This document shows positions 40,587-52,155 of a DNA stretch of 64,000 nucleotides, one piece after another (position 1 is the first letter of the stretch; every line of letters starts with the position of its first letter). The stretch lies in sequence record SRR20825019_1458; one strand, given 5' to 3'. The notes beneath the pieces were generated by a model. It did no database searches. It worked only from the letters and a program-made list of their open reading frames with translations, and was not told the DNA's origin. The translations under genes were made by a program, and so were the position numbers.

Positions 40587-41537
40587 TTAGTTCTTTTGTG
40601 GACGTTCCTGTTTTGACCAATCACGCAAAAGCACATCAATTTTCATCGTGTGCCGAATAATGATGCGCCCAAGCCAAGTGACCAACAAGAGCAGAGAGCC
40701 GGGAAAGATAAACGCATCAAATATTACAGCAATCGCATGTCGCGCCACAGCTCCGGCCAAGGACCGGCTTTTAGACTGAACTCCTGACCCATCCTTCTTA
40801 TACTCGTCTATCACGGTTGAAACATGTGTATGCAGACCATGTGCAAAATCGTCATGCGTGGCTTTGAAGTGCTGTTGTGCCTTCTCCGCGACTGGTTTGG
40901 TGATGGCATCGGATATACTAGACGCGGAGAAAACCGCAAGCGGAAGGCCTATATAGACTAGAAATGTTATCAGCAGCAGTATCTCTGATATCTGCCCGCT
41001 GATGAGGGATACCCAACGCCAGACCCGGCGGAAGACACAATGCATGACAAGTATGACCAGCGTTGTAGTGAGAAGCAATTGCGCCGCATAGCTAGCCCCA
41101 TCAAGAACAACCTCTGTGCCAATCAGTGCGGATGCAGCAACGACGCTTACCCAGAAGGCCCGTGCGGTCAGCTCAGCAACCACACTCAGTAAATTCCCAA
41201 CCTGTACGTTAACGTCGACGATGAGTGAGAAACCGGCGCTGCTGCTCTCTATCACCTTCAAGCCTGCCTCCAGTGCAGCGAGTAACGTCAGGTTTTCACC
41301 AGCGTGAATTTTCGCTTGATGAAGATAGATCTCATTGGCATCAGCGAGATGGCCACGGACAAGTGTATCGAGCAGGTCAGCAACCAGACCAAAATGGTTA
41401 AGAACCAGGAGGATAACAACCGCAGCAATGGCAGGGAGGTTATGCTTCTCCAACTCAGCCAGAAGGGCAGACGCCCTATCATGCACGGTCGGCAAAGAAC
41501 TTCGTCTTCGGCGAGACCGTTTGGCAGAGCGACGCAT
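40587..41537 (-). CDS. hypothetical membrane protein
   Basis: long ORF with several hydrophobic segments, starting 2 bp after the GH25 stop. Confidence 0.65.
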   Translation of the reverse strand: MRRSAKRSRRRRSSLPTVHDRASALLAELEKHNLPAIAAVVILLVLNHFGLVADLLDTLVRGHLADANEIYLHQAKIHAGENLTLLAALEAGLKVIESSSAGFSLIVDVNVQVGNLLSVVAELTARAFWVSVVAASALIGTEVVLDGASYAAQLLLTTTLVILVMHCVFRRVWRWVSLISGQISEILLLITFLVYIGLPLAVFSASSISDAITKPVAEKAQQHFKATHDDFAHGLHTHVSTVIDEYKKDGSGVQSKSRSLAGAVARHAIAVIFDAFIFPGSLLLLVTWLGRIIIRHTMKIDVLLRDWSKQERPQKN

Positions 41538-41538
41538 C

Positions 41539-42255
41539 TCACCACCCCACACAGGTCGTGAGGCGGAGATCAAGCTCTCGTCCCGAAAACCTATCAAGGC
41601 TCACAGGAGTGGCTATACCGTCAACCGTACCGCTATCGCTATATTGCCAAAATAACCAGGATGTCCATCCGGTTGGAAGTTGGGTCTCGCTTGTATAATC
41701 TGCGAGCCAGAGGCCATAGTTGGTAAAATCTCCCGGGAACTCTTCGTCCCAAGTGTCTGGACTTGTATAGATGACCGGTGTGCAATTTAGTGCTGCCTCA
41801 ACCGTTTTGAGCCACACAGCAATCTCAGCTTTCGCTTCCTTTAACTCAGCGCCAGAAAGCCCCTCGACATCAAGGGCAGGAGGCAAAGCTCCTCTATCAC
41901 CGGCGTCCGTCGCGCGAATAACACTGAGGAAGTATGCAGCTTGGGCGGCACCACTGACACCCTGCGTAAAGAAATGATAAGCACCGCGGATCACGCCACT
42001 TTTGTCGCTGCCACTCCAGTTGGCCATAAATTGCGGATCGGTGAGCGTATCACTCTCCGTTGCCTTGATATAGGCAAAGCGCACGCCTCCGCCATAAACC
42101 TGCGTCCAGTTGATCTGTTCCTGATAGCTGGAAACGTCGATACCGCTTATGTATTCCGGCTGCGTTGAGCCTACTGACGTGTCACAGCCAGCAAGCAGGA
42201 AGATGCTAAACAATCTCAGCAAGCAAACTTGCAATATGTCCAGCCGTGCTTTCAT
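41539..42255 (-). CDS. GH25 family lysozyme (muramidase), lipoprotein
   Basis: lipobox LLAGC; GIDVSSYQ, YIKATE, GAYHFF, PPALDVE (DxE), LWLADY, FWQYS..G.VDGI. Confidence 0.9.
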   Translation of the reverse strand: MKARLDILQVCLLRLFSIFLLAGCDTSVGSTQPEYISGIDVSSYQEQINWTQVYGGGVRFAYIKATESDTLTDPQFMANWSGSDKSGVIRGAYHFFTQGVSGAAQAAYFLSVIRATDAGDRGALPPALDVEGLSGAELKEAKAEIAVWLKTVEAALNCTPVIYTSPDTWDEEFPGDFTNYGLWLADYTSETQLPTGWTSWLFWQYSDSGTVDGIATPVSLDRFSGRELDLRLTTCVGW

Positions 42256-42265
42256 TGGCCGCGCT

Positions 42266-42883
42266 TCATGCACCTTCGTTTTCAGTCGGTGGCGCGGTCT
42301 GCGTCTGCGCGGTATGTATAGCAAGTAGTTCCTTCAGCTGCTTGTCTACTTCCTCAGAAATAATCGCCCGGATTGTATTGGCTAGTTCGTTTGCAATTGG
42401 TGCCTCTGGCGCTAGGTCAGGGTTGGCCGCGGGCGCTGTTGCTTGATGCGGTGGGGCTGGCGCAGCCTGCGCAGGGGTGGCGGGGGGAGACGCCTGCGGT
42501 ATCGATTGTTGAGGGGCAGGTGCTGTTACCCCTGTACTGCCTGCGGGGTTTTCTCCCGTTGATACCAGATTTCTTGTTGCAGATTGAGCTTGTTGCATTT
42601 TCTCTATCGCATCCCGTTCTGTGAATTGTTTCTTCGCCGTGGTCATCTGTTCCATAGCGGCCACCCGCTGTTCTTTCACGGCGTCATTAATGTTTTTCTT
42701 CTGGGCTTCATAGGCTTTGCTGATGGCTTCACGCTGGATGACCGAGGCTTGAATGATGTTCATTGCCCGGTCAGACGTGGTGCCCTTTGCGGCTGGCGCA
42801 GCACGCGCCGCCGCTTCTATGAGTTCTTTCTCTGACGGAGGGGCCGCAGGTGCGGCGCCGCTTTCATTTGTGGTATCGCTCAT
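42266..42883 (-). CDS. hypothetical Ala/Pro-rich coiled-coil protein
   Basis: GGAGA RBS, operon spacing, low-complexity composition. Confidence 0.65.
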   Translation of the reverse strand: MSDTTNESGAAPAAPPSEKELIEAAARAAPAAKGTTSDRAMNIIQASVIQREAISKAYEAQKKNINDAVKEQRVAAMEQMTTAKKQFTERDAIEKMQQAQSATRNLVSTGENPAGSTGVTAPAPQQSIPQASPPATPAQAAPAPPHQATAPAANPDLAPEAPIANELANTIRAIISEEVDKQLKELLAIHTAQTQTAPPTENEGA

Positions 42884-42910
42884 CAGCAGTCTCCCGCATC
42901 CAATGTGGCG

Positions 42911-50237: not shown

Positions 50238-50288
50238 ACTTAATATCTGATGCTTACGGATATTTCTTAAGCTATTAGGGGAAACAAT

Positions 50289-50693
50289 ATGGCTGGAAAT
50301 AACGACGATATCGATGCAAATGACGACACTGACCAATCAACCAGCTTGGTGACAACCGAGTTGAACCAGCAGATCGTCCAGGCCGTTGGCATGACCAACA
50401 GCGTTGTTCTAGGCGCTGCCGGGCCCGAGGCCGCAGGCATAGCATACCAAAAGGTGGCCCAGGCCGCCGCATTCTCTGTGCAGGATGCCACAGACTATCT
50501 CCGTAACATCATGACTATCGCTGGCACCGCGCAAGGTGTCTGCCTGCAACTCATGATCGAAAACCCGGCATTGGCAGCAGAATATGTACCAATCATTACC
50601 GCGGCGACCGGCGCCGTCACCAGTGCGCAGACAAACTTTACCGAAGTAGGCGCTGCTGCGGGTACGATTGTATCGAATTTCCCGAGTTCATAA
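50289..50693 (+). CDS. Reb-associated/divergent Reb protein
   Basis: LNQQIVQAV..TN..VLG, AYQKVAQAAAFSVQDATDYLRN. Confidence 0.75.
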   Translation: MAGNNDDIDANDDTDQSTSLVTTELNQQIVQAVGMTNSVVLGAAGPEAAGIAYQKVAQAAAFSVQDATDYLRNIMTIAGTAQGVCLQLMIENPALAAEYVPIITAATGAVTSAQTNFTEVGAAAGTIVSNFPSS

Positions 50694-50880
50694 GCTTCAA
50701 AAGCTAGCTTTTAATGTCGCCGGGCAGGGTGGTCTGCCGGGCTGATAGCGCGTGGCCCCGGCACTTTTTCGTACGATATTCACTTAAATCGTCTCAACCA
50801 ACATTGTTCCCACTCCGGTTTGCATACAAACATTCACATAAATGAAATATCGCGTAACGTGTTTTAATACATCTTATGGT

Positions 50881-50905
50881 TCACGAAACCTCATTTGGTG
50901 ACGTC
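50881..50905 (+). promoter_or_regulatory. candidate autoregulatory promoter of the ECF sigma gene
   Basis: TCACGAA-acctcatttggtg-ACGTC (13-bp spacer). Confidence 0.5.
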
Positions 50906-50982
50906 TCAGTTGTACTTCGAGAACTAAAGATTGTGATCGAGGGGGCAAATACAATGATGACATATACCGAAAGGGGCGGGAA

Positions 50983-52155
50983 ATGGGGAGGTATGGTGAC
51001 GTATCGCAGGAAAGCCTACGCGCAAACTGGCGGCAGAAGCACAACCCAAAAAAACGCGGGAGAGCACCCACTGGTTCACCAGAAGACAGTATACACCCCG
51101 CAGAAAACCTCTCCAAAGGCAAACGCTTACACAACGTCCATCGACTCTTCCCACAAAATTCACGCAATCCGAACAAGCTTCCGCTGAACCATAACAGCGC
51201 ACGCACTCCAGAGACCGAAGAGGTCCAGCCGAATAGAGCTGAAGAGAACACTGCTGAGCAGGTCGCGAGAAGCGTACCTCCATTAGAGGAGGAGGCCGAT
51301 CAGCCCGCCACACCGCAAAACATGCTAAATGACTGGACAGAACATCCCATCACCAAAGCGCTTCAAGGCTTCAACATGGGGCTGTTCGGGCCGAACCCGG
51401 CTCAGATCATTGCAGAGAGCCTGAATTCTCCGTTTGCGCGCAGTCCCTATAACACACCACTCACACCGCAGCCGCCAATCCCAGCGCCAACCACAACCCA
51501 GGGACAGCCAGAGGCCAGAGAGGCCTACCAACAGTCAGAAAAAGCTGAAATATATGAGGAAATGCCGCTCAGGCCGATCGAGACTGACGCACCTGACTTT
51601 GGTGAACAGGATGTGGAAACACACGGCGAGGGCGCAGCTTATGAGGCCTTTTGGAATGTGTGGCTTGGCCATCAGGATTATCTGCGCGGCCAATGCATCC
51701 GTATGATGTCTGGCAATATGGCGGACGCAGAAGATGCGCTCAGCAACGCCATGTTGCGGGCCTCACAGAAGTTTGAGGCATATTCGGACAGTATCGTGAA
51801 TGAGCGCGCGTGGCTCAGCAAGCTAGTGTACAATGTGTGTATCGACCACTTCAGGCGCGAGCAGCGTACCGAGAGCCGTCCGTTCGATCAGGAGCAAGGC
51901 ATGCAGGTCGTCGATACGCTTTATACTGACCCGCAACAATCACCGGAAGAAATCGCACTGTGCCAGGAACAGCTTGACCAGTTGCATCATTCCATGAGCC
52001 AGCTTTCCAATAATCTGCGGGTGCCGCTATTCCTTCGCTGCGTGGAAGGCTGGTCTTATCCGGAAATTGCAGAGCGTTTGAACCTGCGCACTGATACAGT
52101 GCGTAAACGCATCCAACTAGCACGAGACCAGCTTAGACGCGCCGGCATTCGTTAG
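50983..52155 (+). CDS. ECF-type RNA polymerase sigma factor with long N-terminal extension (start uncertain)
   Basis: sigma2: DAEDALS.AMLRA..AWL.KLVYNVCID.FRR; sigma4: LS..LR..LFLR..EG.SY.EIAERL.....TVRKRI..AR. Confidence 0.88.
   Translation: MGRYGDVSQESLRANWRQKHNPKKRGRAPTGSPEDSIHPAENLSKGKRLHNVHRLFPQNSRNPNKLPLNHNSARTPETEEVQPNRAEENTAEQVARSVPPLEEEADQPATPQNMLNDWTEHPITKALQGFNMGLFGPNPAQIIAESLNSPFARSPYNTPLTPQPPIPAPTTTQGQPEAREAYQQSEKAEIYEEMPLRPIETDAPDFGEQDVETHGEGAAYEAFWNVWLGHQDYLRGQCIRMMSGNMADAEDALSNAMLRASQKFEAYSDSIVNERAWLSKLVYNVCIDHFRREQRTESRPFDQEQGMQVVDTLYTDPQQSPEEIALCQEQLDQLHHSMSQLSNNLRVPLFLRCVEGWSYPEIAERLNLRTDTVRKRIQLARDQLRRAGIR

Follow-up and report, generated by a model that had tools for sequence, protein, structure and literature searches.

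R-bodies have been known for about 70 years and, to our knowledge, DeaR is the only delivered R-body toxin identified so far. The locus analyzed here occupies an 11.5-kb block (positions 40587-52155) of a 64-kb stretch of DNA from sequence record SRR20825019_1458 (64,000 nucleotides in all; hereafter, the window) and combines an array of reb and reb-like genes with the genes for an extracytoplasmic function (ECF) sigma factor, a DNase II and a GH25 muramidase. The host of this DNA appears to be a cultivable marine alphaproteobacterium that is not a pathogen.

Among these systems, the PA14 cluster (rebP1P2, rebD, fecI2, rcgA, rapA, deaR) resembles the present locus in that Reb genes are clustered with a sigma factor and uncharacterized accessory genes; it encodes the cytoplasmic enzyme toxin DeaR, and the model proposed for it is a release of contents in phagocytes that is triggered by low pH (PMC8322103, PMC13733733). 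Expression of the PA14 reb genes requires the sigma factor FecI2 (PMC8322103), the PA14 R-bodies extend inside amoebae, and the reb-cluster enzyme DeaR has been shown to be a toxin (PMC13733733, a preprint of October 2026). The two loci differ in size, with ~3 reb genes in PA14 compared with 11 reb or reb-like genes here, in regulation, with no RcgA-like regulator seen in the present block and a ~220-aa N-terminal extension on its sigma factor, and in the payload, which is an ADP deaminase in PA14, whereas the candidate here is DNase II. In Caedibacter taeniospiralis, the rebA-D genes of pKAP298 encode RebA, RebB and RebD building blocks of the PF11747 family in long forms of ~105-115 aa and short forms of ~76-80 aa, as is the case here. 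Extension of type 51 R-bodies is triggered by low pH (PMC8322103, PMC13733733), and the Caedibacter plasmid is described as having no compelling toxin candidate (PMC13733733). In contrast to the Caedibacter genes, the present locus is chromosomal, contains far more paralogs and has ECF promoters, and no RebC was identified in it.

A sigma factor beside reb genes was noted in 2013 (PMC3583457). Group 2 of Raymann et al. 2013, which consists of HP2.1, HP2.2, the sigma factor HP2.3 and the regulator HP2.4, joins reb genes to a sigma factor and two domain-less proteins of ~205-220 aa, a description that two proteins of the present block, p205 (205 aa) and p248, match by size only (PMC3583457); unlike Group 2, this block contains no HP2.4-like regulator. 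The ECF237 group of sigma factors was defined partly by its RebB neighbors (bioRxiv 10.1101/2019.12.11.873521). A survey across bacteria, which covered genes no more than 20 kb away from reb, lists deaminases, an HNH endonuclease, muramidases, a GH24 lysozyme and holins as CEDRs, effectors delivered by R-bodies (PMC13733733); the presence of toxin-like and cell-wall-hydrolase genes near reb is shared with the present locus, whereas no promoter-level regulon is defined in the available part of that survey. The DNase II of B. thailandensis (PDB 5I3E/5UNB) has both HxK motifs and no secretion signal, like the enzyme encoded here, degrades DNA at pH 4-5 without metal ions and shows no apparent activity when the pH is neutral or high (PMC5449587); no biological role has been assigned to it, and no link to reb genes is reported. 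Unlike the B. thailandensis enzyme, the DNase II of the window belongs to a divergent, long-branch clade.

The first-pass annotation of this DNA knew of no described reb locus with such cargo. That statement has to be divided: the cargo concept, and with it muramidases and lysozymes, has been published (PMC13733733), whereas no publication was found that gives DNase II this role. A full-text literature search retrieved no paper on DNase II with R-bodies, and a literature search retrieved none on Kordiimonas with R-bodies; the word 'DNase' is absent from the main text of PMC13733733, although its figure S7, Figure 5 and supplements may list such a gene. Both the cargo concept and the control of reb genes by a sigma factor were already known; what this locus adds is a candidate pH-gated nuclease, a defined promoter and a new promoter-linked protein family, described below.

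The reading preferred here, with a probability of roughly 55%, is that the block is an R-body locus whose own ECF sigma factor runs it as a regulon, with a DNase II that is switched on by acid and released together with the needle, and a GH25 enzyme that probably thins the cell wall. The components of this reading differ in strength. The operation of the R-body locus as an ECF regulon is well supported, DNase II as a co-regulated accessory is well supported by sequence comparison between loci, and DNase II as the payload is plausible. The sequence results themselves comprise the gene content, the enrichment and conservation of the motif, 5' ends at three promoters, and DNase II beside reb arrays in four species; R-body formation, delivery and killing are inferred.

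The reb array and its promoter motif

The ORF list of the window contains 19 gene-like open reading frames (ORFs) in the block. Eight of the encoded proteins pass the Pfam cut-off for RebB (PF11747, 24 bits), with scores of 72.5-97.9 bits; these are six long forms of 107-115 aa (reb1-5 and reb7) and two short forms of 76 and 79 aa (reb6s and reb8s). The six long genes are direct repeats at the DNA level too, 63-81% alike, with a spacing of 525-578 bp. Three divergent reb-like proteins, p134, p118 and p128, keep the N-terminal Reb signature VNxQ(I/V)(T/A)D in the alignment: p134 scores 18.9 bits against RebB, below the Pfam cut-off, and is matched to Reb by hhalign with an E-value of 2.1e-5, p118 is matched by hhalign with an E-value of 4.5e-5, and p128 shows a weak match (hhalign E 4.4e-3, probability 7.8%), with Reb-profile matches of 1e-16 to 1e-20 for the genes of relatives at the place of p128. 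The first-pass annotation had counted about 11 reb or reb-like genes and had placed them in one 11.5-kb block together with a sigma gene of the ECF type, a DNase II gene that lacks a signal sequence and a four-gene leftward operon that includes GH25; all these elements are confirmed by the family searches and reading of the sequence. No Pfam, NCBIfam or PHROG family was detected for p103, p117, p128, p118, p205, p248 or the membrane protein of the block.

The array is tied together by a motif of the form TCACAA-N14-19-CGTC, which has eight matches in the window compared with 0.85 expected, a number that was reached in none of 100 shuffles. Seven of the eight matches are on the + strand, 54-86 nt upstream of reb1-5, p128 and reb7. 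In the list that follows, cDNA and contig cover refer to X12, a public run of the cDNA type that is labeled only as a guess at RNA.

promoter 45744-45767, gene 45846-46178, + strand: reb1 unit (motif, PF11747), with a terminator-like site at 46207-46235
promoter 46315-46338, 5' end 46347, ORF 46395-46742, + strand: reb2 unit (motif, PF11747, cDNA); the gene likely runs from GTG 46410 to 46742, with the repeat register from 46410
promoter 46885-46908, gene 46988-47311, + strand: reb3 unit (motif, PF11747, X12 contig cover)
promoter 47411-47434, gene 47513-47836, + strand: reb4 unit (motif, PF11747, X12 contig depth 60)
promoter 47931-47954, gene 48040-48369, + strand: reb5 unit (motif, PF11747), with a terminator-like site at 48382-48408
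promoter 48446-48470, 5' end 48479, + strand: operon of p128 (48575-48910), p118 (48903-49223, within ORF 48867-49223) and reb6s (49259-49489) (motif, cDNA, PF11747, hhalign)
promoter 49512-49535, + strand: operon of reb7 (49613-49939), reb8s (49998-50237) and p134 (50289-50693) (motif, PF11747, hhalign)
50983-52155, + strand: ECF sigma gene (Sigma70_r2 38.6 bits, r4_2 45.3 bits, Sigma70_ECF 28.7 bits, all above the cut-offs)

Terminator-like hairpins were found 3' of reb1 and reb5 by a scan, and similar ones are seen by eye after reb3 and reb4, so that each of reb1 to reb5 looks like a unit of its own under strong drive. As read from the sequence, the ATG of p118 overlaps the stop codon of p128, and a single X12 contig (49727-50454) spans reb7, reb8s and p134.

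That the motif functions as a promoter is best supported by the transcript 5' ends in X12. The X12 contigs that map here, 19 in number, each match the window with an identity of 99% or more. Together they span p248 with the start of p205 (depth 35), p117 and, in pieces, the reb genes (depth up to 60). The letters at some of the contig ends, which we take to be those of a SMART-type template-switch oligo added at the RNA 5' end, tag the ends at 46347 (+), 48479 (+) and 45224 (-), and each of these three lies exactly 9 nt past CGTC, respectively, of the reb2 motif, of the p128 motif and of a variant upstream of p117. A fourth tagged 5' end, at 45431 (+), lies inside p103 with no motif upstream and may be a processing site, the product of another promoter (in which case p103 would comprise ~70 aa from ATG 45467) or an artefact. 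The X12 contigs do not cover the DNase II body (43968-44631), GH25, the membrane-protein gene and most of the sigma gene, which carries no weight either way, and the public runs X20, X21 and X23 yielded no contigs on 36000-55900.

A looser pattern, TCAC-N16/17-CGTY, has 19 matches in the window compared with 7.56 expected, again a number reached in none of 100 shuffles; 11 of the 19 are inside the block, including the sites before the DNase II gene, the leftward operon and the sigma gene. One looser match, at 41284 (-), is located inside the membrane-protein gene and is probably due to chance. The sites that depart from the strict motif are the following.

43738..43761, - strand: leftward-operon variant TCACAA-N14-CGTT, with the same site before the operon in 6/6 loci
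43779..43802, + strand: DNase II variant TCACGT-N14-CGTC, which ends 48 nt before the ATG
45233..45256, - strand: p117 variant TCGTAA-N14-CGTC, with TTCGTAA-N14-CGTC also before p117 of genome G080 (locus L063)
50881..50905, + strand: sigma-gene variant TCACGA-N15-CGTC, found with the looser motif and with a position weight matrix (PWM)

When all positions of the window are ranked by a PWM trained on relatives only, the seven reb promoters come first, followed by the leftward-operon site in the 8th place (16.3 bits) and the sigma site in the 9th (15.2 bits), two scores that fall within the range of the best ones in shuffled sequence (13-17 bits). Because the PWM scores of the weaker sites are near or below the shuffled level, the case for these sites rests on the comparison between loci. 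In six related loci (L006 and L063-L067), the motif or a variant is present before the reb genes, before 7/7 sigma genes, 6/6 leftward operons and 4/4 DNase II genes. The earlier observation that most units are preceded by a shared promoter-like motif or a variant of it is, then, confirmed by the window counts, the shuffles and the related loci. In the near-identical genome G001, which serves as a stand-in for the window's genome (78% shared words) and has the same locus layout, the strict pattern occurs at 27 sites compared with 9 for a control pattern, and seven of the 27 are within 3.8 kb of the reb locus. These observations support a true reb locus under one ECF-type promoter, and this sigma factor presumably reads TCACAA-N14/15-CGTC.

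In the sigma factor, Pfam regions 2 and 4 are matched, with no match listed for region 1 or 3, as in ECF (group 4) members of the sigma-70 family, and the sigma domain (residues 230-386) is preceded by the conserved extension of ~220 aa. The extension contains one longer conserved string, HPITKAL..NPxQIIADS, and could be a built-in regulatory or anti-sigma-like region; no recognizable anti-sigma domain was detected in the block with Pfam and NCBIfam. Over the DNA that encodes the extension (window 50983-51660), the motifs MGxxxxxxxxSLRAxW, VHRLF, HPITKAL and NPxQIIADS are kept in relatives, and the rest is divergent and Pro/Gln-rich. A motif ahead of the gene of an ECF sigma factor itself is the usual mark of autoregulation, and its occurrence before all seven sigma genes examined points to autoregulation of this one, from a promoter whose -10 element is of the CGTC type.

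DNase II and the leftward operon

The other genes of the block are listed below, from the DNase II gene to the end of the leftward operon.

43851..44906, + strand: DNase II, 351 aa (PF03265, 241.8 bits compared with a cut-off of 23, 1.4e-71)
44925..45200, - strand: p117 (ATG 45200), a small helical protein of 91 aa and a core accessory (X12 contig cover, 5' end 45224)
45368..45679, + strand: p103, a small protein with an ortholog in L063 only
42911..43657, - strand: p248, a highly charged repeat protein, first gene of the operon, with the likely start at 43573 (MARNARDRDDE)
42266..42883, - strand: p205, with two conserved helical segments and a Pro/Ala/Gln-rich linker, a core accessory of this locus type
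41539..42255, - strand: GH25 muramidase, a predicted lipoprotein of 238 aa (ATG 42255; ORF to 42324; PF01183, 154.5 bits, 5e-45, positions 1-180 of 180)
40587..41537, - strand: membrane protein of 316 aa, last gene of the operon (ATG 41537; ORF to 41597; from the ORF list)

The N-terminus of DNase II (MLSAIGEGTESADGEAVDWWF...), read directly, contains no hydrophobic stretch and no signal peptide. The protein is ~50% identical over 336 residues to the B. thailandensis enzyme 5I3E (E 4.6e-74) and has both HxK motifs, H112-x-K114 and H298-x-K300, which match H100/K102 and H279/K281 of that enzyme; GH(C/T)KG and DHAKW are invariant across six aligned DNase II sequences. By analogy with the B. thailandensis enzyme, an acid optimum can be expected for this DNase II.

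The distribution of DNase II was examined in 401 genomes of the order, including 32 of the genus. RebB is present in 21 of the 401, among these 18 of the genus's 32; large reb arrays of this type occur in five members of the genus. DNase II is present in three of the 401 (G001, G092 and G119), and each of the three genes adjoins an array with 8-11 reb matches and has the leftward operon on one side and p117 on the other. When species genomes were scanned with DNase II as the query, 57 loci emerged; the closest of these, L006, comes from a Rhodospirillales metagenome-assembled genome (MAG; 52% identity) and is the sole one with reb genes in the fetched flanks, where 12 Reb-profile matches are accompanied by sigma, p117 and p205. 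In all four reb-linked DNase II genes, TCAC..-N14/15-CGTY is located 45-60 nt before the start codon, and the upstream DNA of the four loci is otherwise unalike. The four enzymes are 47-64% identical to one another and form one group with long branches (Shimodaira-Hasegawa-like approximate likelihood ratio test, SH-aLRT, 89 in a quick tree, which is not a finished search); given this divergence and the intact HxK motifs, the linkage has outlasted a long period of divergence. Judging from these comparisons, the link between DNase II and R-bodies is a speciality of one alphaproteobacterial clade.

The gene order of related arrays shows how DNase II comes and goes. In G080 and G113, the array, sigma, p117 and p205 are present without DNase II, and in G080 p248 is directly next to p117. 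No further gene is gained or lost along with DNase II between L063 and the window, which leaves no immunity candidate and fits a nuclease that does not need an immunity protein. In addition to the large arrays, small reb clusters with 1-4 matches are present in 13 other genomes of the genus; at loci L068-L074 (G056, G073, G004, G083, G098, G077), the fetched flanks in these six genomes contain no sigma, p205 or p117 homolog. These small clusters appear to represent a second kind of reb locus within the genus, of a simpler build.

Outside this clade, the neighbors of DNase II were clustered for 53 loci from Bacteroidota and other phyla, and include phosphoesterase-like genes at 18 loci and xanthine-dehydrogenase-like genes at 15. 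In the loci L011-L038 (Flavobacterium, Saprospiraceae, Chthoniobacterales and others), DNase II is nearly identical across phyla, with branches of 0.01-0.15, and the recurrent neighbors are a ~508-aa phosphoesterase-like, a ~1530-aa xanthine-dehydrogenase-like and an XdhC-like gene, which suggests a horizontally spread cluster for nucleic-acid or purine salvage.

The leftward operon begins with p248 and continues through p205 and GH25 to the membrane-protein gene; the successive gaps measure 27, 10 and 1 nt, and a scan found no terminator-like site on its strand. The p248 gene is entirely within the X12 contig 42736-43688 (depth 35); it has an ortholog in L063 and acidic analogues at the same place in L006, L064 and L066. 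Both p205 and p117 have homologs in L006, L063, L064, L066 and L067. A profile of p205 gave no match in the reb-bearing genomes G086, G392, G286, G004 and G056, in a search without a positive control, and a word-indexed homolog search returned three close matches only. By position only, p103, p117, p205 and p248 are candidates for RebC. The membrane protein has an identical copy in G001 and a 42% identical homolog after a p205-like gene in G119, and was not found in G080, G092 and G113; an Atlas search with this protein gave hypothetical proteins and low TM-scores only.

The GH25 protein matches PHROG endolysin families (down to 1.6e-34) and has a lipobox, LAGC, as read directly, so that it would be exported by itself. 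In G080 and G119, signal-bearing GH25 proteins that are 40-41% identical to it are encoded in unrelated neighborhoods, the one of G080 without a motif, and G092 and G113 have none. Immediately upstream of the G119 gene, which is far from the reb locus of that genome, there is a loose match, TCACGA-N15-CGTC (L076:6572-6596, on G119:C24), a hint at most given that ~1.5 chance matches are expected in the 12-kb locus. The insertion of GH25 between p205 and the membrane-protein gene in this species suggests recruitment rather than a conserved part of the system. The proposal that GH25 belongs to the module is borne out insofar as the gene is part of a sigma-motif operon here, and fails insofar as the reb linkage is limited to this species; likewise, of the DNase II and GH25 genes that had been expected beside RebB in other genomes, DNase II is found there (3/3 in the order, plus L006) and GH25 is not (window and G001 only). 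A role of GH25 as a release or lysis factor is a weak proposition, and for this species only.

A protein of 1852 aa, a hybrid of protein kinase, ATPase, GAF, PAS and histidine kinase domains (window 35027-40585), abuts the block, and in G080 (L063) it abuts p205 directly. This kinase was considered as a partner of DNase II; homologs that are ~25% identical to it are located near DNase II in just 3/53 other loci (L032, L054 and L055), and the association is treated as chance. At 54374-61036 (-), the window encodes a repeat protein of 2220 aa with VCBS/FG-GAP-like and RTX-like Gly/Asp-rich repeats which, as read from the translation, is probably a secreted adhesin.

The proposed acid switch and its rivals

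Under the preferred reading, the sigma factor would recognize TCACAA-N14/15-CGTC and transcribe its own gene, in positive feedback, together with five single-gene rebA/B-type units and two reb operons; through the weaker promoter variants, it would also drive DNase II, p117 and the four genes of the leftward operon (p248, p205, GH25 and the membrane protein). Because the bacterial member of the family is inactive at neutral pH and no export signal is present here, DNase II would build up harmlessly in the cytoplasm in the absence of an immunity protein. After ingestion by a phagotroph, acidification would fire the R-body and switch DNase II on, and the needle would burst the bacterium and the vacuole, so that DNase II would be freed at the same time. 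The probable part of the GH25 lipoprotein, which only this species has recruited into the operon, is to thin the producer's cell wall. The appeal of DNase II as a payload stems from the acid trigger that would be common to its activity and to the extension of the R-body. Toxins of the DNase II family are found in animals, plancitoxin-1 being an example. Plancitoxin-1 of Acanthaster has been placed in the DNase II family (PMC4148230).

Several observations weigh against this scenario. The promoter variant of DNase II is weak and does not rank among the window's top 30 positions by PWM, and none of the 5' ends detected belongs to this gene. Reb genes were found in 0/56 of the other genome loci of DNase II and in 0/64 metagenome loci, within the fetched flanks, with 35 of the 64 metagenome loci being at least 5 kb long, and the four reb-linked cases may derive from one capture event, hence would not be independent observations. 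Large arrays with a sigma gene and no DNase II are present in G080 and G113, of the genus, and in G086, of the sister genus, so that the R-body system works without DNase II, which makes DNase II an accessory rather than a core component. The absence of a signal is the rule in the DNase II family: among the 48 loci with VDWWF in frame, none has a hydrophobic 12-mer upstream of this motif, 33 have <35 residues of open frame there and 47 have a Met within 25 residues. A signal-less DNase II is, accordingly, not a special adaptation of this locus. GH25 is found inside a reb locus only in the window and G001, that is, in this species. Furthermore, an enzyme silenced by neutral pH could do little once it reached the cytosol of a predator, which is neutral, and the neighboring genes elsewhere suggest nucleic-acid salvage, not attack, for the family at large. 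As a single module, which is how the first-pass annotation had joined R-body, DNase II and GH25, the block is upheld with respect to the co-regulation of DNase II, as judged by sequence comparison, and not with respect to a fixed composition, given that G080 and G113 lack DNase II and GH25 is restricted to one species.

The alternative that fares best, although it is doubtful, is that the sigma factor does control DNase II, with the enzyme working on the side of the bacterium: it would destroy the DNA of the producer itself or that in the vacuole (for denial to the predator, salvage or programmed death) and would not be an anti-eukaryote toxin. With a homolog that is inactive at neutral pH (PMC5449587), activity would be expected only in an acid compartment, where the nearest DNA is bacterial, and the neighbors of DNase II in other phyla suggest a breakdown of nucleic acids and purines; the conservation of the promoter variant speaks for this reading as well. 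However, such a role offers no obvious benefit from keeping DNase II by reb arrays across a divergence of 47-64%, and the long branches of the reb-linked enzymes, compared with the near-identical ones elsewhere, look more like an effector under changing selection, a picture that relaxed constraint would give, too.

A second alternative, which is unlikely, treats this part of the locus as a variable region in which the genes for DNase II, GH25 and the membrane protein are passengers without a functional tie to R-bodies, and their motif-like sites as chance occurrences or remnants. Gene content does differ between species, the DNase II site scores poorly with the strict PWM, and the GH25 homologs of sibling species are in unrelated neighborhoods, in G080 without a motif. 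Against this stands the expectation that TCAC-N16/17-CGTY would appear about once per 90 tries (190 nt, one strand), yet it appears at the same place in 4/4 DNase II loci. All three DNase II genes of the order are reb-adjacent even though such arrays are present in only 5/32 genomes of the genus, and the inserted GH25 gene is separated from its two neighbors by 10 and 1 nt, on a strand where no terminator-like site was found. Highly improbable, finally, is the view that the Reb paralogs are not R-body builders here but, for example, controllers of the ECF sigma factor, as suggested for ECF237 neighborhoods in Bacteroidetes (bioRxiv 10.1101/2019.12.11.873521), given that six long and two short paralogs, with a strong promoter for each long one, fit mass production of a structural polymer, and that the sigma-controlled reb homologs of PA14 are known to give rise to R-bodies (PMC8322103).

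A dispersed four-helix family

The regulon may extend beyond the reb locus. Most of the 20 strict-motif sites of G001 outside this locus are inside long ORFs or have no downstream gene. One of them is located 69 nt upstream of a 667-aa ORF (G001:C1:980682-982771; locus L097:1683-3755), and the first ~130 residues of the encoded protein are homologous to a 307-aa protein of L006 (36% identity, E 3e-16), which is preceded by the strict motif too. The same ~130-residue domain is encoded by the gene after p205 in L006 and by a 130-aa ORF after p205 in G092 (a weak match, E 0.003, with the strict motif). A profile of this domain detects nine genes in four of the 32 genomes of the genus (G001, G080, G092 and G119; loci L097-L106), which are four of the five big-array genomes, and none in the big-array genome G113 or in the other 27 genomes of the genus. 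In all nine, TCAC..-N14/15-CGTY is located 56-71 nt before the start codon, and in five of these the pattern is the strict one. There is no copy of such a gene inside the window. Two more intergenic strict-motif sites of G001 precede genes for a GH64-like beta-1,3-glucanase (L090:301-1734, Pfam 1.2e-13) and an XRE-type helix-turn-helix protein (L083:301-1192), which may be extra regulon members or chance occurrences.

For a 193-aa member of the family, a four-helix bundle is predicted, with a predicted local distance difference test (pLDDT) score of 95-98 over residues 1-130; a Foldseek search of this model against the PDB returned generic four-helix bundles only, none at E <=0.001. The AlphaFold2 model of the 667-aa protein is poor past residue 130 (mean pLDDT 47.8). 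Across the family, the domain is followed by a proline-rich linker and then by unrelated C-terminal parts of 0 to ~520 residues. The domain matches 68 of 1.84 billion representative proteins, nearly always at the N-terminus, in proteins of 120-1095 aa, and the full-length relatives of the 667-aa protein are hypothetical proteins in Kordiimonas marina, Methylobacter, a Rhodocyclaceae MAG and a Rhodovibrionaceae strain. The four-helix genes are the strongest sign of sigma control beyond the R-body itself, and their products are candidates for cargo or R-body-associated proteins that are at least as good as DNase II.

These findings allow a bolder and distinctly tentative version of the R-body scenario, namely, a weapon with two loads under the same sigma factor, a pH-safe DNase II and a polymorphic family of four-helix cargo proteins. 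If this version were true, bacterial DNase II would acquire its first biological role, the four-helix bundle would dock proteins (of 130 to ~670 aa, with one representative of 1095 aa) onto the R-body ribbon, and the scattered cargo genes would be tied together by the promoter.

For the biology of R-bodies, the locus provides a second, unrelated toxin candidate, and an activity restricted to acid would account for a nuclease that the cytoplasm can tolerate when no immunity protein is present. The sharply defined promoter makes the whole regulon readable from the genome sequence, and it has led to a new promoter-linked protein family that is possibly the actual docked cargo. For the DNase II family, the locus offers a testable role for its bacterial members.

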